Of a stretch of DNA of 64,000 bases, positions 4,793 through 19,962 are shown piece by piece. Position 1 is the stretch's first letter. Every line of letters begins with the position of its first letter. Made by a program: the position numbers and the translations under genes. The DNA lies in NCBI GenBank assembly GCA_038915815.1, contig JBCLCL010000005.1, positions 3,955 to 67,954 of the forward strand, read 5' to 3'. Source of the DNA: Candidatus Limnocylindrales bacterium (GTDB lineage: Bacteria; Chloroflexota; Limnocylindria; Limnocylindrales; CSP1-4). Under the pieces are notes generated by a model that worked only from the letters and a program-made list of their open reading frames with translations, searched no databases and was not told the DNA's origin.

Positions 4793-6148
4793 ATGCCGTT
4801 CGGACGCCGCCGCTCATCCTTCGGCCGCGATCGAGGCTTCTACCCGCCGCCGAGCGTCCCGCGACCCGTGAAGGACGGCCTCCGGGCGAAGAGCAAACGG
4901 GGCGCCATCGGCGAGACGTGGTGGTCGCAGCGCTTCATCGAGGTGCTCGAGGGCTTCCACGAAGGCCCGCGGCTCGCGCGCGGGCGGGCATACGCACGAC
5001 GCGGCCAGGTCATCGACATGGACGTGGAGGACGGCGAGGTGACCGCGCGCGTCCAGGGCTCGCGGAAACGCCCGTACGACGTCAGGATCGGCGTGACGGT
5101 CCTCGGCGATGCCGACTGGGCCCGCGTCGAGGAGGCGATGGCGAGCCGGGCCGTCTTCCTCGCGCGGCTCCTCGCCGGAGAGATGCCGAACGAGATCGAG
5201 GAGGCGTTCGCGACCAGCGGGCTGTCACTCTTCCCGACCACAGCCGACGATCTCGACACCGACTGCTCCTGCCCGGACTGGGAGAACCCCTGCAAGCACA
5301 TCGCGGCCGTCTACTATCTCCTCGCCGAAGCATTCGACCGTGATCCGTTCCTCATCTTCGCCTGGCGCGGCCGGTCGCGGGAGCGCCTGCTCGCCGAATT
5401 CCGCGCGCTTCGCGGTCAGGCGGCCGGGCCGGCCTCCGGCGCCATCGGCGAACCGGAGGCGGTGCTCCCGGAATCGGCGAGTTGGCTCCTCGGGTTCCTC
5501 GACTCCGATGGGATCGACCTCACCGGCGAAGTCACGGAGGAGATGGCGGGTCGGTTCTGGGATCCAGGCGGCGACGTTGCGTCTGTCCGCGTCGAACCGC
5601 GCGCGGTGGCGATGCCGGACGCGATCCTCCGGGAACTCGGGCCATCGGGACTCTCCGCTGGTGGTCGTCCCCTGGAGGATCTCCTGGCACCTGCCTACCG
5701 GGCGATCGCGGCGGCGGCCGTCCGGTTCGCGGGCGGCGAGCCGCAGGACGAGGCGCCCCCGCGTCCGAACCCGCCGGCACCACCCGGGCCACGCTCCACC
5801 CACCCGCGCGCTCGGGCACGGCGCAGGCCCGAACCAGGTCCCTCCCGTGAGCAGCTGGAGCAGCTGATCGAGGAAGCCACGGTGGACTGCTCCAACGAAT
5901 CCGAGGAATGCACGGGCCTCTTCGAGATGATCCACGAGCACCTCGAGATCCCGTTCGTGACGACGGTCCTCGGCGTCGCCGTGACGGTGACCGCCGTCGA
6001 CATCACGGGCGATGACCAGATCCTCGCGGTCTGCCGGCGTGGTCGAGACCTGCTCAGGATCGCGCTGCTCGAGCTGCCGATGCCGAATCCGCGACCGACC
6101 GGCGCCGAGTGGGTTGACGCATACCGCCACTGGGCGCGGCCACGCTGA
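4793..6148 (+). CDS. SWIM zinc-finger protein with a CcbP-like C-terminal domain
   Basis: The ATG lies 2 nt after the SNF2 stop. SWIM signature CSCPDWENPCKHIAAVYYLL. The C-terminal 90 aa (EATVDCSNESEECTGLFEMIHEHLEIPFVTTVLGVAVTVTAVDITGDDQILAVCRRG..PTGAEWVDAYRHW) match my recollection of the Anabaena CcbP-type calcium-binding domain. Confidence 0.85.
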   Translation: MPFGRRRSSFGRDRGFYPPPSVPRPVKDGLRAKSKRGAIGETWWSQRFIEVLEGFHEGPRLARGRAYARRGQVIDMDVEDGEVTARVQGSRKRPYDVRIGVTVLGDADWARVEEAMASRAVFLARLLAGEMPNEIEEAFATSGLSLFPTTADDLDTDCSCPDWENPCKHIAAVYYLLAEAFDRDPFLIFAWRGRSRERLLAEFRALRGQAAGPASGAIGEPEAVLPESASWLLGFLDSDGIDLTGEVTEEMAGRFWDPGGDVASVRVEPRAVAMPDAILRELGPSGLSAGGRPLEDLLAPAYRAIAAAAVRFAGGEPQDEAPPRPNPPAPPGPRSTHPRARARRRPEPGPSREQLEQLIEEATVDCSNESEECTGLFEMIHEHLEIPFVTTVLGVAVTVTAVDITGDDQILAVCRRGRDLLRIALLELPMPNPRPTGAEWVDAYRHWARPR

Positions 6149-6416
6149 TCCAGGCGACCCATCGAAGCGCGGCACGCATGGGGCCCTGGAGCCGCCGCGG
6201 AACGGCAGCACCCGGCCGAGGCAACAGGTTCTTCCGGCCTTCCGATGAGCATCCGGCTCACCGCGATACGACGGCCGGCTGAGGCCGACCGTCCATTCAA
6301 CACCCGGGGCGCGGGTCTCAATCGGGCAACAGACCTTGGATCAGGCGGTCTCGCTCGACGTCAGCCACTGAGCCGCACCCTCGATCGGGATCCGGATACT
6401 TATGGCGTCCGCGCGC

Positions 6417-6917
6417 TCAAGTCCTGTCGGCCACGCCGATGAGCCCGCCGACTCTCCATGCTATGGCTCGCATCTGCATGCCACCAAGACTGGCTCCGAC
6501 GATGAAGCCGCCCAGCCCGAGTTCGAGGGTCTGCCCCACCCACCAGCCCACCAGCAGCCCAGGCGCCGCGGTCGAGATCGACCAGAGCCCGAGGAGTAGC
6601 GCGCCCCACACGACCGCGCCGATCCCTCCGGCCAGGATCGCTCCGTCTTGGCCACGGTAGATGTCGAACCGCGGTAGCAGCCAGACCAGCAGGCCGGCGA
6701 GCAGCAGCAAGCCCAGATAGCCGATCGGGATGCGGACAAAGGCGTCTTCCGGCCGGAGCAGGAACTGGCTGTCCCAGTCGTATAGCGGGGCGAGTAGCCC
6801 GGCATGCAGGAAGAGGTCGACGCCGAGCATCGCGAGCCAGGTGAGGGCCACCGTGGCCACGGGTCGAGGGACTCTGCGGGCCGTCATCGCTCGGTGGCCG
6901 GCTCCCGTGTCCACCAT
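6417..6917 (-). CDS. Small integral membrane protein (about 4 TM helices), unknown function
   Basis: Only the C-terminal part of ORF 6417..7442 is protein-like: VATVALTWLAMLGVDLFLHAGLLAPLY..IGYLGLLLLAGLLVWLL..GGIGAVVWGALLLGLWSI..LGLGGFIVGASLGG. The ATG at 6917 is preceded by GGAGGAAGGA. Confidence 0.6.
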   Translation of the reverse strand: MVDTGAGHRAMTARRVPRPVATVALTWLAMLGVDLFLHAGLLAPLYDWDSQFLLRPEDAFVRIPIGYLGLLLLAGLLVWLLPRFDIYRGQDGAILAGGIGAVVWGALLLGLWSISTAAPGLLVGWWVGQTLELGLGGFIVGASLGGMQMRAIAWRVGGLIGVADRT

Positions 6918-7159
6918 TCCTTCCTCCACCGAGGGAACCCAGGGAGACACGATGGGACTGCGCGCCGCAGACCTCGGCAATCTGACGGGTTGGATCAGAA
7001 CGCGCGACGAGTGTAGGCGGCCATGCAAGGGCGCAGCGTCCCCGGGTCTCGTCCCCGGGCGCCCCCGGTGGTCCCGCCGGGACCGCTGGCGGACAGATGC
7101 CGTTCGGCACTTGCAATTGCCTCCGTTTCGGCGTTGCATCGGGGCGGAAGGAGTCAGCC

Positions 7160-7951
7160 ATGTCTCAGACGATCTTGTCGCACGACCCTCGGGAGGCCAC
7201 CGACGAGCCCGGCGACCCGGGCCTGATCGCCGGCCGGCCGGTGGAGGATCGGAGCTTCGAGGCAGTGGAGGCGAGCGTCGGGATGGCGGCCGGGCTTGCC
7301 ATCGGCACGGCCGTCGCCGGGCCGATCGGCACGGTCGTCGGCGGCCTGGTCGGAGCAGCAGCCGGCCTCGTCGCGGGCGAGGCGCTCGAGCGAGTCGTTG
7401 GACGCGCCGCCACAACGACGGACGCCGGCGGTCCCGCGGCATCTTCGACCGCGGGCTCGGCTTCCGTGTCTTCGTCCAGCCCGACGGGCTCGGTCCGCGC
7501 CGGCCGGTCTCGGCCGCGGGGATTCATCACCTACCCGACCAACTACCTGCTGGCCGTGGCCGACACGACGACCCAGGCTGCATCTGCAGTTGCGGCGCTG
7601 TCCAGCGCTGGTTTCCCCGCCGCCGACGTGGTCGTGATGGCCGGACCCGAGGCGGGCGAGGAATTCGGGCGACTCGGACCAAAGAAGGGTCCACTGTCCC
7701 AGCTCGTCCGGCTGATCCAGTTCACGACGATGGATCAGATGCCCGACTTTCGGGTATATGAGGACGCACTGCTGGATGAGCGCACGATCGTCGCTGTGCG
7801 AGTCATTGACGCCGACCGGATCCCGATTGCGCGCGACGGGCTGGTCGCGAGCGGGCTCCACTTCCTCAACTTCTACGGGCGGTGGTCCACGATGGAGGTC
7901 TCCGGGTGGCGTGGTCCGGAGCTCGACGAGCCTGACTACCTCCGCCGATAG
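7160..7951 (+). CDS. Hypothetical protein: glycine-zipper-like N-terminal segment plus a YflT/general-stress-like C-terminal domain
   Basis: The ATG at 7160 is preceded by GGAAGGAG. N-terminal segment GMAAGLAIGTAVAGPIGTVVGGLVGAAAGLVAG; C-terminal FITYPTNYLLAVADTTTQAASAVAALSSAGFPAADVVVMAG... The domain call is tentative. Confidence 0.55.
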   Translation: MSQTILSHDPREATDEPGDPGLIAGRPVEDRSFEAVEASVGMAAGLAIGTAVAGPIGTVVGGLVGAAAGLVAGEALERVVGRAATTTDAGGPAASSTAGSASVSSSSPTGSVRAGRSRPRGFITYPTNYLLAVADTTTQAASAVAALSSAGFPAADVVVMAGPEAGEEFGRLGPKKGPLSQLVRLIQFTTMDQMPDFRVYEDALLDERTIVAVRVIDADRIPIARDGLVASGLHFLNFYGRWSTMEVSGWRGPELDEPDYLRR

Positions 7952-8208
7952 AGATCGGACCGCCGCCCGTTCCCGTCCGGATCCTCGGTGATCATCGTGA
8001 GCTGGAGGGACATCATCGGGCCAGGCGAGCGACTGAGTTCAGCCGTCCGGCGCTCTGACGTCGCCCCACTGCGGCGTGCTCTCAACGCTGGAGGCGGCTG
8101 TTCGGACGGAGCGTGCACCGACCGCCGTATGCGCTGCTCAAGCACGGCCATGCGCCTGCCGGAACGTGCTTCCATCCATCGGCCCCGCCCCGTACGCTTC
8201 GTCATGCC

Positions 8209-10359
8209 ATGGACCTGACCCCGATCCTCCGGCCGAGCTCGATCGCCATCGTCGGGGCAAGCCCGCGCTCGTTCGTGGGGCGGGTCGCGCTCGAGAACAG
8301 CCGCGCCCTGGGCTTCCAGGGCCACCTCTACCCGGTCAACCCGAAGTACCCCGAGATCGGCGGGCTGCCCGCCTCGGCGTCGCTCTCGGACCTGCCGGAG
8401 GCGCCCGACGTCGTCCTCGTCCAGCTGGGGACCGACCGGATCCTCGAGGCAGTCCGGGAGGGAGTGGCGGTCGGTGCCCGGGGCTTCGTCATCCCGGGGG
8501 CGGGCTACACGGACTCCGGTCCGGCCGCGCTCGAGCTGGCGGCCGAGCTGCGGACGCTCGCCTCGGAGCGTGGGATCGCGGTGGTCGGCACCAACTGCAT
8601 GGGCTTCGTCGACCTGGTGACCGGGGCCGCTCCCTACATCGGGACCGTCCCGATGCACGTCCGGCGGGGACGAGTCGGCGTCGTCGCCCAGAGCGGCGCC
8701 ATCGTGGAGGCGTTCGTCAACAACGGCGGGCGCGTCCCGCTCTCGACGATCGTCTCGTGCGGCTCGGAGGCCGGGACAGGGCTGGCCGAGTACCTGGCCT
8801 TCTTCGCCGCCGACGAGCGGACCGACGCCGTCCTCGCGTTCGTCGAGGGGTTCGGCGATCCGACCGGTTTCCTGGTCGCCGCCAGATCCCTCGCGGAGGC
8901 CGGCAAGCCGCTGGCCGTGTGCAAGGTCGGCCGATCGTCGGCCGCCCAGGCCGGGATCGTCGCCCACTCCGGGAAGCTGGCCGGCAACGCCCGGGTCGGC
9001 GCGGCTGCGCTCCGCCAGGCCGGCGCGATCCTGTGCGCCGATCTCGACGAGTTGACCACGATCGGCGAGATCTTCGGCGCAGGTCGGACGCGGATGGGCC
9101 GTCGGGCTCACATCGTCACGAACTCCGGGGGCGAGGCGAACCTCCTGTCGGACCTGGCCGAGGACGTCGGGATCGAGCTACCACCGCTGAGCGAGGCGGG
9201 CGCTGCCCGGCTCACGGCAACCTGGCCGAACTTCCACCCCCGCAACCCGATGGACCCGTGGGGCACGGACGACTACCGGGCCATCTACCCGCGGGCCCTC
9301 GAAGCGCTGGCCGATGAGCCGGGCGACCTTCTCGTCGTGAGCCTCGACCAGCAGACGACCTGCGGCTCGTACGAGCTCCAGCTCGGGCGCGACCTGGCCT
9401 CGTACCTGGCCGGCGAGGCGTCGCGGACGAAGAAGACGCCGGTCTTCCTCTCGCCCTCGAGCCAGGATCCGAGCCCCGAGCTCCTCACCTACTGCCTGGC
9501 CGAGCGGATCCCGCTCCTGCGCGGCGCCTGGACGGCTCTGGACGCCCTGGCGAAGGTGGCCCGTCGGACCGAATGGGCGGGCGATGGACGGATCTCCGTT
9601 GTCGGCCCGCCGATCGCGCTCCCGGAGTTGATCTCGGCCGGACCTCTCGACGAGTATGCCTCGCTGGCGATCATCGACCGCTACGGCATCCCGACCCCGC
9701 GCCGGTCGACTGCGCGGGACGCCTTCGCGGCGGTCGAGGTCGCTGAGCGGATCGGCTACCCGGTCGTCCTCAAGGGTGTGGCCGGCGGAGTCAGCCACAA
9801 GACCGAGCTGGGCCTGGTACGGGTCGGGCTGGGATCCGCGGAAGAGGTTCGACGGGCCGCGGGGGAGATCTCCGGGAACGCGGCCCGTGCCGGGTTCGCG
9901 GTCACCTTCCTCGTCGCTGAGCATGTCCGGGCGGAGCTCGAGCTGATCGCGGGCTTCCGGCGCGATGACCAGTTCGGGGTGGCGGTCCTGGTGGGCCTCG
10001 GCGGGATCTGGGCCGAGCACTTCGACCAGGTCGCCGTCCGGATCGGCCGGATCGGCTTCGACGAGGCGCGCCGGATGCTCGACGACACGATCGTCGGGCG
10101 GATGCTCCGAACGGCCCGCGGCGGGGCGATCCCCGATGATGGCATCGTGGCCGCGATCGTCGGCCTCGCGGCGCTCGGCGAAGACCACCCGGAGATCGCC
10201 GAGGCGGACCTCAACCCGATCCTGGTCGGCCGCGAGCGGACCGTGGCCGTGGACGCGCTGGTCGTCCGGGCCGACGCCCCGCCGGCCGACATCGGGACCG
10301 GCTCGCCGACCGCCGAGCCGGCCCTCGAGCGAGCGGCCAGAGAGGTGATGAACGGATGA
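8209..10359 (+). CDS. ADP-forming acyl-CoA synthetase (acetate--CoA ligase family; CoA-binding, ligase-CoA and ATP-grasp domains)
   Basis: MDLTPILRPSSIAIVGASPRSFVGRVALEN..LYPVNPKY (CoA-binding domain). C-terminal ATP-grasp YASLAIIDRYGIPTPR..AERIGYPVVLKGVAGGVSHKTELGLVRVGL. I chose the internal ATG at 8209 within ORF 8113..10359. Confidence 0.85.
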   Translation: MDLTPILRPSSIAIVGASPRSFVGRVALENSRALGFQGHLYPVNPKYPEIGGLPASASLSDLPEAPDVVLVQLGTDRILEAVREGVAVGARGFVIPGAGYTDSGPAALELAAELRTLASERGIAVVGTNCMGFVDLVTGAAPYIGTVPMHVRRGRVGVVAQSGAIVEAFVNNGGRVPLSTIVSCGSEAGTGLAEYLAFFAADERTDAVLAFVEGFGDPTGFLVAARSLAEAGKPLAVCKVGRSSAAQAGIVAHSGKLAGNARVGAAALRQAGAILCADLDELTTIGEIFGAGRTRMGRRAHIVTNSGGEANLLSDLAEDVGIELPPLSEAGAARLTATWPNFHPRNPMDPWGTDDYRAIYPRALEALADEPGDLLVVSLDQQTTCGSYELQLGRDLASYLAGEASRTKKTPVFLSPSSQDPSPELLTYCLAERIPLLRGAWTALDALAKVARRTEWAGDGRISVVGPPIALPELISAGPLDEYASLAIIDRYGIPTPRRSTARDAFAAVEVAERIGYPVVLKGVAGGVSHKTELGLVRVGLGSAEEVRRAAGEISGNAARAGFAVTFLVAEHVRAELELIAGFRRDDQFGVAVLVGLGGIWAEHFDQVAVRIGRIGFDEARRMLDDTIVGRMLRTARGGAIPDDGIVAAIVGLAALGEDHPEIAEADLNPILVGRERTVAVDALVVRADAPPADIGTGSPTAEPALERAAREVMNG

Positions 10360-10784
10360 GCGAGTCGCACCCGCCGATCAGCAGCACGCTCCGGGTCCGG
10401 ATGGGCCAGGAGGACGCCCACTACGGAGGCAACCTCGTCGCCGGGGCGCGGACGCTCGCCCTGTTCGGCGACGTCATCACCGAGATCGCCGTCATCACCG
10501 ACGGCGACGAGGGCCTGTTCGTCGGCTACCAGGAGATCGAGTTCCTGGCCCCCGTCTACGCGGGTGACTTCCTCGAGGTGACCGGCACGGTCACCCGGAT
10601 CGGCGACACCAGCCGGACGGTCAGCTTCGAGGCCCGCAAGGTGATCGCCAGCCGCTACGACCTGGGGCCCTCGGCGGCAGACGTCCTGGCCGAGCCGATC
10701 GTGACCTGCCGGGCGATCGGCACGACCGTCATCCCGAAGGCCCACTCCCGGAAGGCCGCCCCCCTCCGCGAGGAGCCTCGATGA
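10356..10784 (+). CDS. Hotdog-fold protein resembling 3-aminobutyryl-CoA / beta-alanyl-CoA ammonia-lyase (Kal/Acl family)
   Basis: ATGA start/stop overlap with the synthetase gene. LRVRMGQEDAHYGGNLVAGARTLALFGDVITEIAVITDGDEGLFVGYQEIEFLAPVYAGDFLEVTG matches my memory of Kal-type sequences. Confidence 0.6.
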   Translation: MSESHPPISSTLRVRMGQEDAHYGGNLVAGARTLALFGDVITEIAVITDGDEGLFVGYQEIEFLAPVYAGDFLEVTGTVTRIGDTSRTVSFEARKVIASRYDLGPSAADVLAEPIVTCRAIGTTVIPKAHSRKAAPLREEPR

Positions 10785-10860
10785 CCGCGGCGCCGGTCCG
10801 GGCGATCTTCGTCCTGACCCCGCCGAGCTTCTGAACGCGGTCCAGGAGGAGTTCGGCTCC

Positions 10861-13290
10861 ATGCGATCACATGCCCGGGTTGTCATCGTCGGTGGCGGGG
10901 TCGTGGGGGCCAGCCTCCTGTATCACCTCGCGAAGATGGGCTGGCGCGACACCCTGCTGCTCGAGAAGAACGAGTTGACGGCGGGGTCCACGTGGCATGC
11001 GGCGGGGCTGTGTACGCAGTTCAACGCGAGCTACAACGTCACGCGCCTGCTGATGTACGGGGTGGAGCTGTACAAGGCGCTGGGAGCGGAGACCGGCCAG
11101 GCGGTCGACTTCCACGAAGTCGGCAGCGTTCGGCTGGCGACCTCGCCGGAGAGCCTGGACCACTACCGGCACGCCCGCGGTCTGGCCGGGATCGCCGGGC
11201 TGCCATTCGAGCTGATCGGACCCGACGAGGTCGCCCGGCTCTGCCCGCTGCTGTCGCTCGACGGGGTGCTTGGGGCCGCCTGGACTCCGACCGACGGGTA
11301 TGTGGACCCGAGCAGCGTCACCCAGGCGCTCGCGAGGGGGGCGCGCGAACTTGGTGCCGAGATCAGGCGCCATACCCCGGTTCGCGCCCTGCGGCCGACA
11401 CCGGGCGGCGAGTGGGAGGTGGTGACCGACGACGGAACGGTGACCGCGGAGATCCTCGTCAACGCCGCCGGCATCTGGGGGCGCGAGATCGGTGTGCTCG
11501 GCGGCGTCGAACTGCCGATCGTGCCGATGGAGCACCAGTATCTGGTCACGGACACGATCCCCGAGCTGGCCGTCGACCACCGCGAGATGCCCGTGGTCCG
11601 TGACGTCGAGGCGTCGTTCTACGCGCGCGAGGAGGGCAGCGGCCTGATCGTGGGGCCGTACGAGATGAACCCGAAGCCGTGGGCGGCCGAGGGGATCTCG
11701 CCGGAGTTCGGCCAGCAGCTGCTCCCCCCGGACTGGCCGCAGATCGAATCGGTCCTCGCCCTTGCGCAGGATCGAATCCCCGCCCTGCGCGTCGCGGGCG
11801 TCAAGAGCCTCGTCTGCGGTCCCACCAGCTACACGCCGGACGGCAACGCCCTGATGGGCTGGGTCCCGGGCCTGCGCAATTACTTCGTGCTGGCCGGGTT
11901 CAGCTACGGCATCGTCCAGGCCGGTGGTGCCGGCCGCAACGCCGCGGAGTGGATCGTCGAAGGCCAGCCGGGCGACAACATGTGGGAGCTGGACGTCCGT
12001 CGCTTCGGCCCGCACGCGGGCGCGCTCCCGTACCTGATCGCACGTGCCAGCCAGGTCTATGAACGCGAGTACGCCATCCCCTACCCGTTCGAAGAGCTTC
12101 CTGCCGCTCGGCCGCTCAAGACGGACCCGCTGTTCGATGTCCTGGCGGCCCGCGGTGCGGTATTCGGCGAGCGCAACGGCTGGGAGCGGCCACTGTGGTT
12201 CGCGCCCGGGGGCTCCGCCGGCAGCACGGAGCCGACCTTCCGCCGGCCCGGATGGCTGCCGGAAGTCGCCGGGGAATGTCGCGCCGTGCGCGAGCGCGCC
12301 GGGTTGCTCGACATGACCAGCTTCGCGAAGTACGAAGCCCGCGGACCGGGAGCCGAGAGCTTCCTCGATCGCATGTCGGCCAACAAGCTGCCCGGGCCAG
12401 GACGCACGGCGCTGGTCCAGATGCTCACACCCCAGGGCGGGATCGAGTGCGACGTGACGATCACGCGTCTCGCTCCCGACCGGTTCTACATCATCACCGC
12501 TGCGGCGACCGAGGCGCACGATCTCGAGTGGCTCGAGCGGCACCGGCCGGTGGACGGGAGCGTCGTCATCGAGAACGTGACGGGACGCTGGGGCGTGCTG
12601 GCGATCGCCGGACCCAGGTCCCGGGACGTTCTGGCCACGGTGTGTCGCGACGACCTCTCGGGCACCGGCTTCCCGTTCATGGCGGTGCGCGACGTCCGGA
12701 TCGGGTCCGTGCCCGTCCGGGCGCTGCGGGCCACCTATACCGGGGAGCTCGGCTGGGAGCTGCACCACCCGATCGAGTACTCACGGACGCTCTACGAGCT
12801 GCTCACCGCGGCGGGCGAGCCGCACGGGCTCGCAGACGTCGGGTACCTCGCCCTGGACTCGCTGCGGCTCGAGAAGGCGTACCGGCTGTGGGGCGCGGAC
12901 ATCTCGCCGCAGTACACGCCGCTGGAGGCCGGCCTGGAACGGTTCGTGCGGTTCGACAAGGGCGACTTCATCGGTCGCGATGCGCTGCTCCGGCAGCGCG
13001 ACGCCGGCCTCGAGCGACAGCTCACGTGCCTGACGATTGACCTCGCTCCCGGGGACGATCTCTTCCCGTGTGGCGGCGAACCCCTCCATCTCGATGAGCA
13101 GTTGCTCGGCTACCTCCAGTCGGCGGGGTACGGTCACGCGGTCGGTGCGACGATCGGGATGGCCTACCTTCCGCCACCGATGGCAGTCCCCGGCACGCGC
13201 CTCGAGGTCGAGATCCTCGGCGAACGCCGGTCCGCGTCGGTCGTGGCCGGGCCGCTCTACGACCCGCTCGGGTCGCGGATGCGCGCGTAG
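10861..13290 (+). CDS. FAD-dependent oxidoreductase fused to a GcvT-like folate-binding domain (dimethylglycine/sarcosine dehydrogenase family), paralog 1
   Basis: 809 aa. Dinucleotide-binding N-terminus VVIVGGGVVGASLLYHLAKMGWRDTLLLEKNELTAGSTWHAAGL. C-terminal aminomethyltransferase-like part YTGELGWELHHP..LRLEKAYRLWG. Confidence 0.9.
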   Translation: MRSHARVVIVGGGVVGASLLYHLAKMGWRDTLLLEKNELTAGSTWHAAGLCTQFNASYNVTRLLMYGVELYKALGAETGQAVDFHEVGSVRLATSPESLDHYRHARGLAGIAGLPFELIGPDEVARLCPLLSLDGVLGAAWTPTDGYVDPSSVTQALARGARELGAEIRRHTPVRALRPTPGGEWEVVTDDGTVTAEILVNAAGIWGREIGVLGGVELPIVPMEHQYLVTDTIPELAVDHREMPVVRDVEASFYAREEGSGLIVGPYEMNPKPWAAEGISPEFGQQLLPPDWPQIESVLALAQDRIPALRVAGVKSLVCGPTSYTPDGNALMGWVPGLRNYFVLAGFSYGIVQAGGAGRNAAEWIVEGQPGDNMWELDVRRFGPHAGALPYLIARASQVYEREYAIPYPFEELPAARPLKTDPLFDVLAARGAVFGERNGWERPLWFAPGGSAGSTEPTFRRPGWLPEVAGECRAVRERAGLLDMTSFAKYEARGPGAESFLDRMSANKLPGPGRTALVQMLTPQGGIECDVTITRLAPDRFYIITAAATEAHDLEWLERHRPVDGSVVIENVTGRWGVLAIAGPRSRDVLATVCRDDLSGTGFPFMAVRDVRIGSVPVRALRATYTGELGWELHHPIEYSRTLYELLTAAGEPHGLADVGYLALDSLRLEKAYRLWGADISPQYTPLEAGLERFVRFDKGDFIGRDALLRQRDAGLERQLTCLTIDLAPGDDLFPCGGEPLHLDEQLLGYLQSAGYGHAVGATIGMAYLPPPMAVPGTRLEVEILGERRSASVVAGPLYDPLGSRMRA

Positions 13291-13350
13291 CCGGCGCAGC
13301 GGTGGTCATGGATCCAGTGATCGTGGAAAGAGGACGAATGGAGGAGCAGG

Positions 13351-15828
13351 ATGACGAGTGAGCTCACCAGCGGCGGGGCGGCCGGATCGTTCCCGACCCA
13401 CGCCCAGGTCGTCGTCGTCGGCGGCGGGATCGTCGGCTGCAGCGTGGCCTACCACCTCACGAAGCGCGGCTGGCGGGACGTCGTCCTGCTCGAGCGTCGA
13501 CAGCTCACCTCCGGCACGACCTGGCATGCCGCCGGGCTCGTCACCCAGCTGCGGGCGACCTACAACATGAGCATGCTGGCCAAGTACAGCGCCGAGCTGT
13601 TCCCCGAGCTCGAGCGGCTGACCGGCATGGGGACGGGCTTCCGCCAGACCGGATCGATCCTCCTCGCGACGACCGAGGAGCGCTGGACGGAGGTCCGGCG
13701 GCAGATCTCGATGGCCCGCGTCTGCGGCTTCGAGGTCCAGCCGATCAGCGGTCGGGAGGCGGCCGGCATGTGGCCGCTGCTCGACCCGGCGGAGGTCGTG
13801 GGGGCGGCCTACCTGCCCGGCGACGGCGTCGCCAACCCGACCGACGTCACCCAGGCCCTGGCGAAGGCGGCCCGGCTCGGTGGCGCCCGGATCTTCGAGC
13901 ACACGGCGGTGACCGGGGTGCCCCGGAAGGACGGTCGGGTCACCGGCGTGTCGACCGATCGTGGGGAGATCGCCTGCGAGTACGTGGTCAACTGTACGGG
14001 CATGTGGGCCCGCGAGCTGGGCGCCCGGTCGAACGTGACGATCCCGCTCCACGCCGCCGAGCACTTCTACCTCATCACCGAGCCCGTTCCCGGGCTCTCG
14101 TCGGACCTGCCGGTCCTGCGCTCCCCGGACGACACCGCCTACCTGCGCGAGGACACGGGCAAGCTCATGGTCGGCTTCTTCGAGCCCGGCGCCAAGCCAT
14201 GGGCGACCCACGGCATCCCTGACGATGCAGCGTTCATCAGGCTGCCGGAGGACTGGGATCATCTCGCGCCGTACCTCGAGATGGCTGCCCGACGTGTCCC
14301 GCTCCTGCGCGAGGTCGGCATCCAGCTCTTCTTCAACGGCCCCGAGAGCTTCACCCCGGATGACCGCTACATCCTGGGTGAGGCGCCCGGGCTCGGCGGC
14401 TACTTCGTCGCGGCCGGCTTCAACTCGGTCGGCTTCCAGTCCGGTGGCGGGGCCGGCCGCGCCGTCGCCGACTGGATCGTGGATGGGCACCCCTCGATGG
14501 ACCTCTGGGAGGTCGACATCCGGCGCTTCATGCCGTTCCAGGGAAACCGGCGCTACCTCCACGACAGGACGACCGAGACGCTCGGGCTGCTCTACGACAT
14601 GCACTGGCCGTTCCGCCAGGTCGAAACCGCGCGGGGCGTTCGCCGGACGCCGTTCCACGACCGACTGTCGGCGCGCGGCGCGTGCTTCGGCGAGCTGGCC
14701 GGCTGGGAACGGGCCAACTGGTATGCGCCGCCGGGGGTCGAGGCGCGCTACGAGTACAGCTACGGCCGGCAGAACTGGTTCCCGCACTCGGCCGAGGAGC
14801 ACCGAGCCGTTCGAGAGGGGGTTGGGCTCTTCGACCAGACATCGTTCGGCAAGATCCTGGTCCAGGGCCGCGACGCCGAACGGGTGTTGAATCGGATCTG
14901 CACGGCCAACGTCGCCGTCGAACCCGGCCGGATCGTCTACACGCAGTGGCTCAACGAACGCGGCGGGATCGAGGCGGACGTCACGGTGACTCGTGTCGAC
15001 GAGCGATCGTTCCTCGTGGTCACGTCGGGCACGTCCATCGTGCGCGATCTCGACTGGCTGGCGCGGCACGTCCCGGACGACGCCCACGTCGTCGCCACCG
15101 ACGCGACGAATGCCTTCGCGGTGCTCAGTGTCATGGGCCCGCGTTCGCGCGAGTTCCTGTCCACCGTCACCGATGGCGACCTCTCGAACGCGGCGTTCCC
15201 GTTCGCGACATCACGTGAGATCGACATCGGCTACGCGCTCGTCCGGGCCTCGCGGATCACCTACGTCGGCGAGCTGGGCTGGGAGCTCTACATCCCGACC
15301 GACATGGCCACCCACGTCTACGACGCGATCGTGGCGGCGGGCGAGTCCGTCGGCCTGCGCCATGCCGGCTATCACGCCCTCAACTCGCTCCGGATCGAGA
15401 AGGGCTATCGCCACTGGGGTCACGACATGACCGACGAGGACACCCTGCTCGAGGCGGGTCTTGGCTTCACGGCGGCCTGGGACAAGCCGGACGGGTTCAT
15501 CGGGCGCGAGGCGCTCTTGCGCCAGCGCGAAGCCGGGCTTGCCCGTCGACTCGCCGTCTTCATGCTCGACGACCCGGAACCACTGCTCTACCACAACGAG
15601 CCGATCTGGCGGGATGGGGCGCTCGCAGGCCGGATCTCATCCGCGATGTTCGGCCACACGGTCGGGCGCGCGATCGGGCTTGGCTATGTGGGGCGGGAGG
15701 ACGGCCCGGCCACTGCCGAGTGGCTGGCTGCGGGTCGGTACGAGATCGAGGTCGCCGACGAGCGTCTCGCGGCAAGCGTTTCGCTCCGTGGCCCCTACGA
15801 CCCGGAGAATGCGCGGATCCGGTCGTGA
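13351..15828 (+). CDS. FAD-dependent oxidoreductase fused to a GcvT-like domain (DMGDH/SARDH family), paralog 2
   Basis: 825 aa. VVVVGGGIVGCSVAYHLTKRGWRDVVLLERRQLTSGTTWHAAGL; YVGELGWELYIP; LRIEKGYRHWGHD. Confidence 0.9.
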   Translation: MTSELTSGGAAGSFPTHAQVVVVGGGIVGCSVAYHLTKRGWRDVVLLERRQLTSGTTWHAAGLVTQLRATYNMSMLAKYSAELFPELERLTGMGTGFRQTGSILLATTEERWTEVRRQISMARVCGFEVQPISGREAAGMWPLLDPAEVVGAAYLPGDGVANPTDVTQALAKAARLGGARIFEHTAVTGVPRKDGRVTGVSTDRGEIACEYVVNCTGMWARELGARSNVTIPLHAAEHFYLITEPVPGLSSDLPVLRSPDDTAYLREDTGKLMVGFFEPGAKPWATHGIPDDAAFIRLPEDWDHLAPYLEMAARRVPLLREVGIQLFFNGPESFTPDDRYILGEAPGLGGYFVAAGFNSVGFQSGGGAGRAVADWIVDGHPSMDLWEVDIRRFMPFQGNRRYLHDRTTETLGLLYDMHWPFRQVETARGVRRTPFHDRLSARGACFGELAGWERANWYAPPGVEARYEYSYGRQNWFPHSAEEHRAVREGVGLFDQTSFGKILVQGRDAERVLNRICTANVAVEPGRIVYTQWLNERGGIEADVTVTRVDERSFLVVTSGTSIVRDLDWLARHVPDDAHVVATDATNAFAVLSVMGPRSREFLSTVTDGDLSNAAFPFATSREIDIGYALVRASRITYVGELGWELYIPTDMATHVYDAIVAAGESVGLRHAGYHALNSLRIEKGYRHWGHDMTDEDTLLEAGLGFTAAWDKPDGFIGREALLRQREAGLARRLAVFMLDDPEPLLYHNEPIWRDGALAGRISSAMFGHTVGRAIGLGYVGREDGPATAEWLAAGRYEIEVADERLAASVSLRGPYDPENARIRS

Positions 15829-15902
15829 CGGGGTCCAGGTGCGTCTCGCCGGCCGGGTCACCAGGGCGACATGGTGCTGCACAAACCACGGAGGTCCAAG
15901 TC

Positions 15903-18362
15903 GTGCGCCCCTCGATGCTGCCCGAGCGCGCCCAGGTGGTCATCGTCGGCGGCGGGGTCATCGGCTCCAGCATCGCCTACCACCTCACGAAGCTCGGCTG
16001 GCGCGATGTCGTGCTGCTGGAAAGAAAGCAGCTGACGGCCGGGACGACCTGGCACGCGGCGGGGCTGATCACGTCGGCGGGCTGCGCCACCGAGACCCTG
16101 CTCTGGATGTCTCGCTACACCCGCGACCTGTGCGCCTCGATCGAGGCTGAGACCGGCCAGGCGACCGGCTTCCGCGCCATCGGCCATCTGCACCTGGCGA
16201 CCACGCCCGGGCGGCTGGAGGCGCTTCGGCGCGAAGCGGCGTTCGTTCGCGGTCACGGCGTCGACAACCAGGAACTCTCGGCACGCGAGTTCGGCCAGCT
16301 GTGGCCGGAGGCCAGGACCGACGACGTCCTCGCCGCCTTCTACGTCGCGGACGAGGGGCGGGTCAACCCCGCGGACCTCACGATGGCGTACGCGAAGGGC
16401 GCCCGCATGGGCGGGGCACGGATCGTCGAGGGCGTCGCCGCGACCGGCTTCACCAGGGCGGATGGGCGGGTCACCGGCGTGGTCACCGACCGGGGCACGA
16501 TCGAGGCCGAGTACGTCGTGAATGCCGCCGGCATGTGGGCGCGGCAGGTCGGCGCGCTGGCCGGTGTCTCGGTGCCGCTTCAGGCGGCCGAGCACTACTA
16601 CCTGATCACCGACACCGTCGGGTGGGCGAACCCCGACCTCCCGGTGATCGAGGAGCCGGACCGGCACGGCTACTACCGTGAGGAGGGCGGCGGGATCCTC
16701 GTCGGACTGTTCGAGCCCGTGGCCGGACCCTGGTCGCTCGACGGCATCCCGGGCGAGGTCGCATTCGCGAGCTTGGCGCCGGACTGGAAACGCGTCGGCC
16801 CCTACCTGGCCCGGGCGATGGACCGCATCCCTGCGCTGCACGAGGCCGGCGTCCGGACGATGTTCTGCGGACCGGAGAGCTTCACGCCCGACATCGGCCC
16901 GCTGCTCGGCGAAGCGCCGGAACTCGGGGGATTCTTCGTCGCGGCCGGGATGAACTCGCTCGGCATCATCCTGAGCGGCGGCGTGGGCAGCCTGATCGCC
17001 CAGTGGATCGTCGACGGTGTTCCGCCGGTCGACGTGACCGGCCTGGCCATCGACCGGACCCAGCCGTTCGAGACGAGCCGCCGCTTCCGGGCGGACCGGA
17101 CGGTCGAGCAGCTTGGGGCGCTCTTCGCCGACGCGGCCTGGCCGAACTGGCACCCCAGGACCGCTCGCAACGTCCGCCGATCGGTGATCCACGACCGGCT
17201 GGCCGCGGCGGGTGCGCATTTCGCCGTCTCCTCGGGCTGGGAGTACCCGGAGTGGTTTGCGGCCGACGGCGCGCCGCCCGAGGTCGCGCTCGGCTGGGGA
17301 CGCGACGGCTCCTTCGCGCCGCAGGCGGCCGAGCACCGCGCCGTACGCGAGGCGGTCGGCATGCTCGACGTGTCGCTGATGGCGAAGTTCCTCGTCCAGG
17401 GCCGCGACGCCGAGGCCACCCTGAACCGGATCTGCGCGAACGACGTGGCCGTGTCGGTCGGCCGGGTCGTCTACACCCAGTGGCTCAACGAGCGCGGCGG
17501 AATCGAGGCCGACCTCACCGTCACCCGCCTCGGCGAGGAGCGGTTCCTCGTCGTCGTGACTGACCTCGTCCACCGCAGGATCGCGCCATGGATCGAGCGG
17601 CATACGCCGGACGGCGCCCACGTGACGGTTACCGACGTGACCTCCGGAACGACCCTCCTCAGCATCCAGGGCCCGCGCTCTCGCGAGCTGCTCCAGCGCC
17701 TGACGAGCGCCGATCTCTCCAACGACGCGTTCCCCTATCTGACTGCCAGAGAGATCGATCTGCACTACGCCCGGGTGCTCGCGATGCGGGTCACCTACGT
17801 CGGTGAGTTGGGCTGGGAGCTGCACATCCCGGCCGAGTTCTCGCTCACCGTCCACGACGCGCTGATGGAGGCCGGGACGGACCTCGGGTACCGCAACGTC
17901 GGCCTCGGTGCGATGAACAGCCTCCGCCTGGAGAAGGCCTATCGCGACTACGGCCTGGACATCGACAACACCGACACGCCGCTCGACGTGGGTCTTGGCT
18001 TCACCGTCGCCTGGGACAAACCCGGGGGCTTCATCGGGCGCGACGCGCTGCTCGCCCAGCGACACGCCGGCCCGCCGCGGCGACGGCTCGCCCAGTTCCT
18101 CCTCGAGGACCCGGAGCCGCTGCTCCATGGTGGCGAGCCGATCCTCCGCGACGGCCGGCGGTTCGGGCACATTCGGGCGGGCGCATACGGACACACGCTC
18201 GGCGGAGCCGTTGGTCTCGGCATGGTCGAGGACGAGACGGGCATTCCCGCGGAGGTGATCCAGGGCGAGTGTTTCGAGATCGACATCGCCGGGAGCCGCT
18301 TCCGGGCACTCGCGTCGCTTCGTCCGCTCTACGATCCGGACCGCCTTCGCATCAAGTGCTGA
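15903..18362 (+). CDS. FAD-dependent oxidoreductase fused to a GcvT-like domain (DMGDH/SARDH family), paralog 3
   Basis: GTG at 15903, 8 nt after GGAGG, chosen within ORF 15720..18362. VVIVGGGVIGSSIAYHLTKLGWRDVVLLERKQLTAGTTWHAAGL; YVGELGWELHIP; LRLEKAYRDYG. Confidence 0.88.
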   Translation: MRPSMLPERAQVVIVGGGVIGSSIAYHLTKLGWRDVVLLERKQLTAGTTWHAAGLITSAGCATETLLWMSRYTRDLCASIEAETGQATGFRAIGHLHLATTPGRLEALRREAAFVRGHGVDNQELSAREFGQLWPEARTDDVLAAFYVADEGRVNPADLTMAYAKGARMGGARIVEGVAATGFTRADGRVTGVVTDRGTIEAEYVVNAAGMWARQVGALAGVSVPLQAAEHYYLITDTVGWANPDLPVIEEPDRHGYYREEGGGILVGLFEPVAGPWSLDGIPGEVAFASLAPDWKRVGPYLARAMDRIPALHEAGVRTMFCGPESFTPDIGPLLGEAPELGGFFVAAGMNSLGIILSGGVGSLIAQWIVDGVPPVDVTGLAIDRTQPFETSRRFRADRTVEQLGALFADAAWPNWHPRTARNVRRSVIHDRLAAAGAHFAVSSGWEYPEWFAADGAPPEVALGWGRDGSFAPQAAEHRAVREAVGMLDVSLMAKFLVQGRDAEATLNRICANDVAVSVGRVVYTQWLNERGGIEADLTVTRLGEERFLVVVTDLVHRRIAPWIERHTPDGAHVTVTDVTSGTTLLSIQGPRSRELLQRLTSADLSNDAFPYLTAREIDLHYARVLAMRVTYVGELGWELHIPAEFSLTVHDALMEAGTDLGYRNVGLGAMNSLRLEKAYRDYGLDIDNTDTPLDVGLGFTVAWDKPGGFIGRDALLAQRHAGPPRRRLAQFLLEDPEPLLHGGEPILRDGRRFGHIRAGAYGHTLGGAVGLGMVEDETGIPAEVIQGECFEIDIAGSRFRALASLRPLYDPDRLRIKC

Positions 18363-18588
18363 GACACCAGCGACCGAGCACCGGCTCAGCACGCCGGTCA
18401 TAGCGACGACGCCGACCGAGTTCCGGCACGGCCCCGTCGAGGCGACCCGGCCAGGCGACGTGACCGCCCCGCCACCATGGCGGTTCTCCTTCCGCTGCGC
18501 GCGCGTTCCCCAACCCGGCCAACCCTCCGCCTACCCGAAGCCGATGGCCGGGTCCCATGCTGGAGCCTGCCGGCTCCTCGTCCGGTCA

Positions 18589-19455
18589 TCAGTCCGCCGG
18601 GCCAGGACCTCCTGCCTGTCCGCGAGCCGACGATCGCGCGCCGCGGAGGTAGACGAACCAGTACAGGATGCCGACCATGACCGCTCCGCCGATGATGTTC
18701 CCGATGGTCACCGGGAGCAGGTTCGCCGCGAGGAACGCCTGCACCGTCAAGTTCGGAAAGTCCGTCGGAACGCGGCCGATCTCGCCCCAGAATCCCGCTG
18801 GTGCCCAGGTCCGGATGGCGATCGCCTCGGGGATGAAATACATGTTGGCAACGCTGTGCTCGAAGCCCGCCGTGACGAAGGCCGCGATCGGCGGGATGAT
18901 CGCGAGGATCCGGTCGGTCGTCGTCCGGGCGCTGAACGTGAGCCAGACGGCGAGGCAGACGAGCGCGTTGCACATCATCCCGAGTGCGATGGCGGGCACG
19001 AACTCGAGACCGACCTTCGCGTTTCCGATCATGAGAGCGGCAAGGCCGACACTGCCCTTGCCGAAGGCGTACTGACCGGAAACGAACATGACCGCCGCGG
19101 TCGCCAGGGCTCCCACGAAGTTACCGGCGTAGACGATGGTCCAGTTCCTGAGCACGAGAGCTGAACTGACCTTGCCGCTCGCCCAGGCCATGACGATCAG
19201 GGTGTTGCCGGTGAAGAGCTCGGCACCACCGACGATGACCAGGATCAGACCGAGCGAGAACGCCAGGCCGGCCAGCAGTCGTGCGAGACCGTACGGCACG
19301 TCGCCGGCGCCCGCGCTGACGGTCGTAGCGAAGACGGCCCCGAGCGACATGAACGCACCGGCGAGGACGGCCTACCCGAACAGGCTGACGGCGTCGAGCC
19401 TCGCCTTGCGAACTCCTACGTTCTCCGCCCGGGCTGCCATGAGCGCGTCGCTCAT
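18589..19455 (-). pseudogene. Formate/nitrite transporter (FNT) family gene with an in-frame TAG at codon 28
   Basis: ORF 18589..19350 is clearly FNT-like (LFTGNTLIVMAWASGKVS..; FEHSVANMYFIP). The same frame continues upstream to the ATG at 19455: MSDALMAARAENVGVRKARLDAVSLFG*AVLAGAFMSLGA. A single TAG at 19372-19374 sits inside what should be TM1. Confidence 0.75.
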
Positions 19456-19962
19456 CGCTCGTCCCCCTTGCTGCGAACAGGGACGCCCATGCGGACGCCG
19501 TGGGGCAGGACTCCGCTCGCGCTCGCAGGTAGCCGGTGCCCGGGCGCACCACGTCCCTCACGAACTGAACGGCTTGAGCACCATGTCCGCGATGATCAGC
19601 GCGTAGATGAGGGCGTCGATCGTCGAGGGCGGTGAAGGCCTCGAAGTCCTCGTGAGGGCTCGTCGCGGGATCGCACCACCACCCGAGTCTCCGGTCCCGG
19701 ATCGAGCTGGGGACCTGACCCTGAACGTGGTCGTAGAGACCCGCCAATGTGGATCGCCTGCGAGCGCGGCGCCAGAGCCATCCGACCTCTCGGCCGAGGG
19801 CCGCACGGACCGAAGTCGATGGCGGCCGTGGGGTGCCCGCAGGTCGGGCCATTCGGCCCCCGATCCAGCCTGCGACCGGCCGGTGCGCTCCGGTGGTGTG
19901 CCATGCGATGCTGGTCACACGACAGCCGCAGGAGGGCCCGAGGTGTGGGAGCGATCGTCACG

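Follow-up and report, generated by a model that had tools for sequence, protein, structure and literature searches.

Within a 64,000-nucleotide stretch of the genome of a Candidatus Limnocylindrales bacterium (GenBank assembly GCA_038915815.1, contig JBCLCL010000005.1, forward-strand positions 3,955 to 67,954; hereafter the window), we find an ADP-forming acyl-CoA synthetase (ACD) gene that overlaps the gene for a small hotdog protein of the Kal/Acl family of beta-aminoacyl-CoA ammonia-lyases (the lyase). On balance, we consider that the pair probably encodes steps one and two of a pathway in which three enzymes would take beta-alanine through beta-alanyl-CoA and acrylyl-CoA to propionyl-CoA. 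ACD would use ATP, by way of a phosphohistidine at H253, to join beta-alanine to CoA, yielding beta-alanyl-CoA, ADP and phosphate. The translationally coupled lyase would convert beta-alanyl-CoA to acrylyl-CoA and NH3, and an NADPH-dependent reductase of the YhdH/AcuI type, encoded on another contig of this genome (C77), would clear the reactive acrylyl-CoA as propionyl-CoA. What is new is probably a known pathway with an undescribed activating enzyme and a different reductase.

A first-pass annotation had described an ACD coupled by an ATGA overlap to a Kal/Acl homologue. Our searches agree with it on both genes. ACD matches CoA_binding_2, Succ_CoA_lig and ATP-grasp_5 (PF13380, PF13607 and PF13549; E values from 2.4e-17 to 1.1e-48, all above cut-offs), and the predicted domain order is the fused alpha–beta layout of NDP-forming acyl-CoA synthetases. 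The lyase scores 172.6 bits (E 3.5e-51) on the NCBIfam model NF052388 for 3-aminobutyryl-CoA ammonia lyase, which has a cut-off of 160, and matches the structure of Acl2 from Clostridium propionicum (4mtu/4mzq, E 1.8e-25). Its next PDB matches are acyl-CoA hydrolases, with E values of 0.11 or worse; in Pfam it matches the 4HBT hotdog family at 29 bits and MaoC under the cut-off of that family. The profile and PDB searches thus group the hotdog protein with Kal/Acl and not with thioesterases or dehydratases. The motifs DAHY-GNLV-GAR, GD..TE, DGD and APVY-GDF-E are kept in the lyase; the motif columns are invariant in relatives linked to an ACD and in those linked to lysine-fermentation genes, nearly so in the rest, and are also found in the alignment with Acl2.

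We compared the window proteins by tblastn with 64 loci (L001–L064) that encode a relative of the lyase. In 29 of them (L001–L027, L036 and L051), the gene immediately upstream of the lyase is an ACD orthologue, with identities to the window proteins of at least 75% for the lyase and 48–94% for ACD, so the pair is conserved outside this genome and across two phyla. The paired loci come from metagenome-assembled genomes (MAGs) of Chloroflexota and from members of the Actinomycetota, among them Nonomuraea sediminis, Sinomonas gamaensis, two Blastococcus and Euzebyaceae and Nanopelagicales-like MAGs. There is no ACD match in the other 35 loci, among which L046, L052 and L059 have less than 1 kb of upstream sequence and L064 is a lyase fragment. 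At 19 of the 29 paired loci, the closest in-frame start is the one that gives a 4-nucleotide overlap of start and stop codons. The independent count is lower than 29 because many of these loci are close kin (L012–L021 are nearly one lineage); on the lyase tree they correspond to roughly three lineages of Chloroflexota and five or six of Actinomycetota.

The maximum-likelihood tree of the lyase, which has 62 rows (L036, L051 and L064, with matches of fewer than 100 residues, were left out), was built without Acl1/2, the Fusobacterium Kal or Stigmatella ADO72524. It is divided by a branch with 97/90 support into 33 and 29 rows, which in this unrooted tree are two sides of a branch and not proven clades. 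On the side of 33 rows are 28 that are ACD-linked and five without an ACD: one from an Actinomycetota MAG and four from Streptomyces, two of which are identical and come from one chromosome. The other side holds all 17 rows that have Kce, Kdd, KamA or KamDE in the locus, as recognised by NCBIfam, together with Nitrosopumilaceae, Dehalococcoidia and others. Conserved pairing and the separation from lysine-fermentation Kals support the proposal of the first-pass annotation that the two genes form a module that would activate a beta-amino acid and then deaminate its CoA ester.

Some relatives of the lyase have other surroundings. Streptomyces sp. NBC_01089 carries two copies near the chromosome ends (L037 and L039) that, like L035, encode an ACD-side homologue without an ACD. 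Neighbouring genes in these three loci encode an ATP-grasp enzyme, a pyridoxal-phosphate-dependent decarboxylase of the ornithine/diaminopimelate type, a carrier protein, a phosphopantetheinyl transferase, a major facilitator superfamily transporter and an AraC regulator, and the set looks like a small biosynthetic cluster. L028 has a single 637-amino-acid frame (8504–10417) with a DAO domain (residues 44–274) and a hotdog lyase domain (526–590), which is either a fusion of DAO with the lyase or two genes read through as one; next to it is a second DAO gene, and the locus has no ACD. Five Nitrosopumilaceae loci (L044, L048, L050, L053 and L058) carry Kal-family genes with neither lysine-fermentation genes nor an ACD in the locus. 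Kal-family genes in ammonia-oxidising archaea were already remarked on in the available part of a preprint (10.1101/2020.06.24.168906).

The main argument for a three-carbon over a four-carbon substrate comes from a reductase and from prp genes. Clustering of open reading frames (ORFs) identified a gene of 334 amino acids beside many of the pairs; its L001 copy scores 416 bits on TIGR02823, the YhdH family of acrylyl-CoA reductases (cut-off 297), and 334 bits on the stricter AcuI equivalog NF051456, under the cut-off of 440. By tblastn, a YhdH/AcuI-family reductase adjoins the pair in 24 of the 29 paired loci, directly after the lyase in eight (L001, L003, L005 and L007–L011) and divergent from ACD in 16 (L012–L018, L020–L023, L025–L027, L036 and L051). 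The reductase of the window’s own genome, on the 6-kb contig C77, scores 411 bits on TIGR02823 and is 72% identical to the L001 protein. As the usual third gene, the reductase points to beta-alanine rather than 3-aminobutyrate. The equilibrium of Acl is said to lie toward amination, a finding attributed to Herrmann et al. in 2005. The tight linkage of the reductase would be expected because the product of Acl must be pulled away and because acrylyl-CoA is regarded as highly toxic (available part of PMC4029986). In S. gamaensis (L025), AcuI is divergent from a run of genes in the order ACD, lyase, PrpD, PrpB, PrpC and PntAB, in which PrpB is a PrpB-like PEP-mutase/isocitrate-lyase protein and PrpC belongs to the citrate-synthase family; these genes are a methylcitrate cycle for propionyl-CoA and a source of NADPH.

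Other neighbours recur less often. Of the 29 paired loci, 9 carry aminobutyraldehyde-type aldehyde dehydrogenases, 6 carry PucR-type regulators and 2 carry a class-III aminotransferase, and DAO-family amine oxidoreductases lie near the lyase in the window, L006, L019, L023, L024 and L028. These recurrent neighbours are typical of amine catabolism. In L001, the reductase is followed by a gene for a CoA-transferase-family protein fused to a GNAT domain. In L008 (6403–7719) and L019 (4875–6155), a gene for a protein of 426–438 amino acids from the medium-chain dehydrogenase/reductase (MDR) family (ADH_N and ADH_zinc_N) lies beside ACD and is of a size and family compatible with a crotonyl-/acrylyl-CoA carboxylase–reductase.

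The ligase itself gives a second clue to the substrate. Its NCBIfam matches are archaeal acetate-, 3-hydroxypropionate (3HP)- and 4-hydroxybutyrate (4HB)-CoA ligases, at 234–263 bits against cut-offs of 1200–1300, so no curated model assigns a substrate. The closest solved relative is DddX (7cm9, ‘DMSP lyase’), with an E value of 1.5e-78 over residues 9–685, followed by the 4HB-CoA ligase (8wzu, 3.1e-61) and the 3HP-CoA ligase (9y43, 4.7e-61) of Nitrosopumilus. As described in the available part of PMC8163506, DddX joins dimethylsulfoniopropionate (DMSP) to CoA with ATP via His292 and then splits DMSP-CoA into dimethyl sulfide and acryloyl-CoA; the sulfonium group is bound by Trp391 and by Phe435, the latter through a cation–pi contact, and Glu432 is proposed to act as the base. 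ACD aligns with DddX at about 95% coverage and at an identity that, in the printed alignment, looks roughly one third, its E value being that of a PDB-sized search; the same source recognised homologues by an E value below 1e-75, coverage above 70% and identity above 30%, with another database and program.

In the printed alignments, His292 of DddX corresponds to H253 of ACD, which would be the phosphohistidine that the superfamily conserves on its swinging loop, and four of the five pocket residues are kept or conservatively replaced (Tyr181 is Tyr, Asp208 is Glu, Trp391 is W351 and Glu432 is E389). The positions of Tyr181, Asp208, Trp391 and Glu432 are occupied by Asn, Ala, Val and Asn in the 4HB-CoA ligase. 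For the 3HP-CoA ligase, the match of which stops before the Glu432 position, two positions were compared, with Ile in place of Asp208 and Gly in place of Trp391, and PatZ has Arg at the Trp391 position. H253, W351 and E389 are invariant in all 28 ACD rows that we aligned (the window and 27 loci; L001 and L027, the genes of which were broken in ORF calling, were left out). A predicted pocket for a three-carbon acid with a cationic group at C3 fits beta-alanine (3-ammoniopropionate) and argues against 3-hydroxypropionate. Relatives of ACD with 49–56% identity are also found in Geodermatophilus, Modestobacter, Mycolicibacterium wolinskyi, Rhodococcus koreensis and Pseudonocardia.

Several observations weigh against beta-alanine as the substrate or against the proposed direction, and we consider them with the readings that they would suit. 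Overall similarity of the lyase does not favour beta-alanine, because its identity is 57% to the Kal of a full lysine-fermentation operon and about 47% (counted from the alignment) to Acl2, and because the model that it passes bears the name of a 3-aminobutyryl-CoA lyase. Acl2 itself is mixed at the positions that separate the two sides of the tree, resembling the ACD-linked rows at 57, 61 and 88 and the lysine-linked rows at 17, 44 and 131. These similarities, together with the Kal equivalog score and public records that name orthologues ‘3-aminobutyryl-CoA ammonia-lyase’ (others read ‘hotdog domain-containing protein’), would suit a module with the same logic but another beta-amino acid. In such a module, the substrate of ACD would be 3-aminobutyrate (or 3-aminoisobutyrate), and the lyase, as a true Kal, would give crotonyl-CoA (or methacrylyl-CoA). 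We regard this as unlikely: the catabolism of crotonyl-CoA needs no enoyl reductase, yet an acrylyl-CoA-reductase-family gene accompanies most of the pairs; prpDBC follow the pair in L025; and the ACD-linked lyases stand apart from the lysine-linked ones on the tree. The suppliers of 3-aminobutyryl-CoA, Kce and Kdd, were also not found in the whole genome, which is 73% complete, although for Kdd this negative is weak because the Kdd control matched nothing in any of 14 control genomes.

The first-pass annotation had further noted that no aminomutase or CoA-transferase accompanies the pair, and this holds for the annotated neighbours in the window, among which there is no aminomutase, Kce, Kdd or CoA-transferase. 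Elsewhere in the genome, on a different contig, there is one radical SAM gene of the KamA family, and KamD is matched at only 59.6 bits against a cut-off of 600.

Two further points against our reading concern the ligase. The position of Phe435 of DddX is Leu in all 28 ACD rows, and W351 and E389 had to be rejected as markers of a lyase-linked subfamily of ACDs, as an unpaired paralogue has both. This second DddX-like ACD of the genome (C15, 44553–46835; L071, 8554–10836) is 41% identical over residues 1–456, keeps the His, Trp and Glu equivalents and lies, without a lyase partner, between an acyl-CoA dehydrogenase and an enoyl-CoA hydratase. Because the paralogue shares these residues, the pocket marks a DddX-like group and not the paired subfamily alone.

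The likeness to DddX also raises the question of whether ACD could be a ligase–lyase in its own right that turns an onium propionate, for example DMSP, beta-alanine betaine or an N-methyl-beta-alanine, into acryloyl-CoA, alone or with the hotdog enzyme, with a sulfide or methylamine instead of ammonia as leaving group. DddX being the best solved relative, the invariance of the phosphohistidine, of Trp391 and of the proposed general base Glu432, and an AcuI linkage that suits any route to acryloyl-CoA are all consistent with this, as are the N-demethylase genes that come after the pair in the window and, as an independent case, in L019, where genes for PurU and a solute-binding protein accompany them. 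However, a dedicated lyase would be redundant if ACD eliminated alone, Phe435 is replaced and the demethylases are not conserved partners. Moreover, no betaine–choline–carnitine transporter (BCCT) or dddB/dddC-like genes were seen among the annotated neighbours in the window and the annotated loci, and the runs X1–X5 are labelled as soil metagenomes, where DMSP is uncommon. We therefore hold such an activity to be distinctly unlikely.

It is more doubtful still that the genes form a reductive module for 3-hydroxypropionate or acrylate, in which ACD would make 3HP-CoA or acrylyl-CoA, the hotdog protein would be a dehydratase or hydratase, and AcuI would lead to propionyl-CoA, so that the three steps of propionyl-CoA synthase would reside on separate enzymes. 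The order of ligase, eliminase and reductase does mirror the propionyl-CoA synthase route, and an ADP-forming 3HP-CoA ligase is among the matches of ACD (NF045492, 257.8 bits; 9y43). That score is, however, far under the cut-off of 1300, the pocket residues follow DddX and not the 3HP or 4HB ligases, and the neighbours are amine-related (PucR, aldehyde dehydrogenase, DAO and aminotransferase). The two activities known from characterised members of the hotdog family, Acl and Kal, are ammonia eliminations.

The remaining points against the beta-alanine route concern context and direction. An adjacent reductase was seen neither in the window nor in 5 of the 29 paired loci (L002, L004, L006, L019 and L024), although the contig of L004 begins only 357 nucleotides before ACD and has little upstream sequence in which a reductase could be found. 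All that is proposed here on function, from the substrate and the ligase direction to each catalytic step, is drawn from comparative genomics and homology, and no RNA run is among those listed as containing the stretch. ACDs are reversible and serve ATP synthesis in fermenters, and the ligase could therefore run toward ATP formation (acyl-CoA, ADP and phosphate giving acid and ATP) on the end product, with another enzyme making the beta-aminoacyl-CoA for the lyase; the CoA-transferase-family gene after AcuI in L001 could charge beta-alanine in such a scheme. We find this very improbable. The cultured carriers Blastococcus, Sinomonas and Nonomuraea are aerobes, propionyl-CoA appears to enter the methylcitrate cycle in L025, a CoA-transferase is present in one locus only among annotated neighbours, and the DddX-like cation-binding pocket would be left unexplained.

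Beta-alanine is degraded by transamination or, in C. propionicum, by way of beta-alanyl-CoA that is made by a CoA-transferase. The route proposed here would share the intermediates of the clostridial pathway (beta-alanyl-CoA, acrylyl-CoA and propionyl-CoA), and its lyase is homologous to Acl2. In contrast to that pathway, activation would be by an ATP-driven, ADP-forming ligase, the reductase is an MDR enzyme of the YhdH/AcuI type, the hosts are soil and freshwater Chloroflexota and Actinomycetota, and the genes form a coupled pair or, with the reductase, a trio. The Kal of lysine fermentation belongs to the same hotdog family, and the window lyase passes its model cut-off with the identity to one operon Kal given above; however, our lyase lies across the supported split from all lysine-context rows and has as partners an ACD and an acrylyl-CoA reductase in place of Kce, Kdd and KamDE. 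With DddX (7cm9; available part of PMC8163506), ACD shares the domain order, the equivalents of the phosphohistidine, Tyr181, Trp391 and Glu432, and a predicted route to acryloyl-CoA. It differs in the change from Phe435 to Leu, in having a separate coupled lyase gene, in its terrestrial habitat, in the lack of a DMSP-type transporter (BCCT or ABC betaine-type) or dddB/dddC among annotated neighbours, and in a leaving group that is probably ammonia. The ADP-forming 3HP- and 4HB-CoA ligases of Nitrosopumilus (9y43 and 8wzu) are likewise fused ACDs and act on small C3 and C4 acids in the direction of ligation, but at those pocket positions that the alignments cover they do not share Tyr/Glu/Trp/Glu, and ACD scores far under their NCBIfam cut-offs.

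The closest parallel in logic is the beta-valine pathway of Pseudomonas sp. SBV1 (BvaA with BvaB1/BvaB2; available part of PMC4619459), in which ATP-dependent ligation to CoA is followed by CoA-dependent elimination of ammonia. Its enzymes, an AMP-forming PaaK-like ligase and lyases of the crotonase fold, are unrelated to those of the window and convert beta-valine to 3-methylcrotonyl-CoA. To the two-step module of the first-pass annotation we can thus add a third gene of the YhdH/AcuI type, a ligase nearest to DddX and a case in which the same logic has been shown with unrelated enzymes.

The first-pass annotation did not know the pair as a described unit, and our literature search, which most subscription journals lay beyond, likewise found no paper describing a beta-alanine-CoA ligase, a beta-alanyl-CoA synthetase or the ACD–lyase unit. 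An ATP-driven beta-alanine ligase is wanted by pathway engineers. In the available portions of the papers on beta-alanyl-CoA that we examined, no enzyme is reported that joins beta-alanine to CoA with ATP. According to the accessible part of a 2023 study (PMC10266731), ten synthetases were screened for this ligation without success, and a Stigmatella homologue of the lyase had beta-alanyl-CoA lyase activity of 12 U/mg. The HOPAC paper, as far as its text is available, includes a ligase (betaCl) in its scheme, the activity of which could not be established. Of two 2026 studies, each available in part, one found significant activity only with the clostridial transferase among the enzymes tested (PMC13067684) and the other uses that transferase (PMC13042692).

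The block that the window shares with L001–L006 comprises only 8153–10788, at 86–91% nucleotide identity, and the flanks differ; other genes common to the window and these loci are 67–79% identical, apart from two short blocks of 91–94%. Among 301 sampled genomes of this order, 15 gave a match of any kind, and only 7 besides this genome have a lyase with at least 81% identity. In the same genus, 2 of 49 genomes match, with identities of only 44–46%, and in a phylum-wide sample 12 of 401 genomes match. These samples are mostly incomplete MAGs, in which a gene that was not found is not necessarily absent. Six genomes of the order-level sample (G620, G600, G576, G545, G570 and G642) have a more distant hotdog relative (38–46% identity, E 1e-22 to 1e-26), which was not found in the window’s genome. 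The ACD–lyase module is widespread but patchy in soil Actinomycetota and Chloroflexota, and the 2.6-kb pair in the window has the look of an accessory cassette that precedes three genes for N-demethylases.

The three encode paralogues, each with DAO, FAO_M, GCV_T and GCV_T_C domains, that resemble dimethylglycine/sarcosine dehydrogenases and dimethylglycine oxidase (DMGDH/DMGO). Such genes were rejected as generally conserved partners, as they are absent next to the pair in most loci: they follow it in the window and L019 only, with one within 7 kb in L006. In L019, from an Actinomycetota MAG, the genes for PucR, ACD, lyase, PurU, two DMGDH-like proteins and a solute-binding protein have one direction; the DMGDH-like genes are 30–41% identical to those of the window and apparently frameshifted. 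Two independent joinings, together with the plain DAO genes found near other pairs, suggest that the module is at times supplied by amine oxidases or demethylases. We speculate that the demethylases may deliver beta-alanine from N-methylated precursors, with N-methyl-beta-alanines as candidate substrates. A bolder proposal, to which we would give only a small chance, is that ACD branched off the DddX lineage with a Tyr/Glu/Trp/Glu pocket for cationic 3-substituted propionates and is the first ATP-driven (ADP-forming) beta-alanine-CoA ligase from nature. With the lyase and AcuI it would form a portable cassette from onium propionates to propionyl-CoA, joined here and in L019 to folate-dependent N-demethylases for N-methylated beta-alanines (beta-alanine betaine derivatives) in soil.

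The window has a G+C content of 70%, and third-position GC above 0.8 marks real genes in it; the values of 0.91 and 0.96 for the ACD and lyase ORFs are typical of these. Coordinates of the pair and adjoining features are listed in Table 1. Although the ACD frame is open from a GTG at 8113, in tblastn comparisons the orthologues align from residue 1 of the form that starts at ATG 8209, and DNA conservation with relatives starts around 56 nucleotides upstream of this ATG. Upstream of ACD are genes for an SNF2 helicase and a SWIM protein and a 284-amino-acid ORF without an assigned function; downstream, the DMGDH-like genes are followed by a convergent gene for a formate/nitrite transporter and then by a xylose operon.

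Table 1 Features of the ACD–lyase region in window coordinates
Feature	Position	Strand	Evidence and remarks
Conserved region upstream of ACD	8153..8208	+	blastn block common to L001–L006 starts at 8153; candidate promoter/operator
ADP/NDP-forming acyl-CoA synthetase (ACD), fused alpha–beta, 716 amino acids	8209..10359	+	Pfam domains and PDB matches; proposed beta-alanine-CoA ligase
ATGA overlap of ACD stop and lyase start	10356..10359	+	Sequence and coordinates; read as translational coupling
Kal/Acl-family hotdog beta-aminoacyl-CoA ammonia-lyase, 142 amino acids	10356..10784	+	NF052388, 4mtu, side of the tree and motifs; proposed beta-alanyl-CoA ammonia-lyase
DMGDH/DMGO-like FAD and folate demethylase, paralogue 1	10861..13290	+	DAO, FAO_M, GCV_T and GCV_T_C; 76 nucleotides past the lyase
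DMGDH/DMGO-like demethylase, paralogue 2	13351..15828	+	
DMGDH/DMGO-like demethylase, paralogue 3	15915..18362	+	Start uncertain: frame open from 15720, first Met before the FAD-binding motif at 15915

In the alignment of six upstream regions of ACD, a TACGCT box 12–17 nucleotides before the ATG and a GGAAC-N-TTCC-like palindrome around 45 nucleotides before the start both have invariant columns; no Shine–Dalgarno sequence precedes the ACD start. These motifs are possibly a short-leader promoter with an operator. A promoter scan returned no sigma-70 consensus or promoter-like sites. The terminator scan gave 2 sites against 2.6 expected from shuffled sequence and is hence uninformative; it placed no terminator-like site between the lyase and the first DMGDH paralogue, and a terminator-like hairpin at 18469–18483, after the third paralogue, belongs to a class of sites no commoner than in shuffles. 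There are no Rfam matches in 6000–19600.

Five runs (X1–X5), each labelled as a soil metagenome, contain at least one fifth of the stretch. A short Logan contig of X1, which may be the source sample, spans the junction of the lyase and the first DMGDH-like gene (10730–11043) among the DNA contigs. Contigs of X1 (depth 173) and X2 link position 6967 straight to 8116 and omit 1148 nucleotides (6968–8115) that contain an ORF without an assigned function (7097–7951) and within which depth is reduced. This is probably a strain variant without the segment, which ends around 40 nucleotides before the conserved ACD–lyase block; no terminal repeats or mobile-element repeat signature were seen around the segment. 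In contigs of X1, X2 and X3, position 9228 is linked to 10071 or 10083 within the ACD gene, with 1–10 other letters between. Depth is reduced over 9261–10013 and the shorter sides of these joins are only 30–56 nucleotides long, and the joins may reflect a divergent strain or an artefact.

If ACD catalyses the reaction proposed here, it would provide an irreversible entry to acrylyl-CoA for acrylate and 3-hydroxypropionate routes and for synthetic routes of CO2 fixation. The reading, if true, would explain the role of acrylyl-CoA reductases in many non-marine Actinomycetota and Chloroflexota, and would correct widespread automatic names, among them ‘3-aminobutyryl-CoA ammonia-lyase’ for the lyase and ‘acetate--CoA ligase family protein’ for ACD orthologues, which public records otherwise call ‘acyl-CoA synthetase (NDP forming)’. 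It would also mean that DddX, until now a marine sulfur enzyme, is related to terrestrial enzymes that act on a nitrogen substrate.

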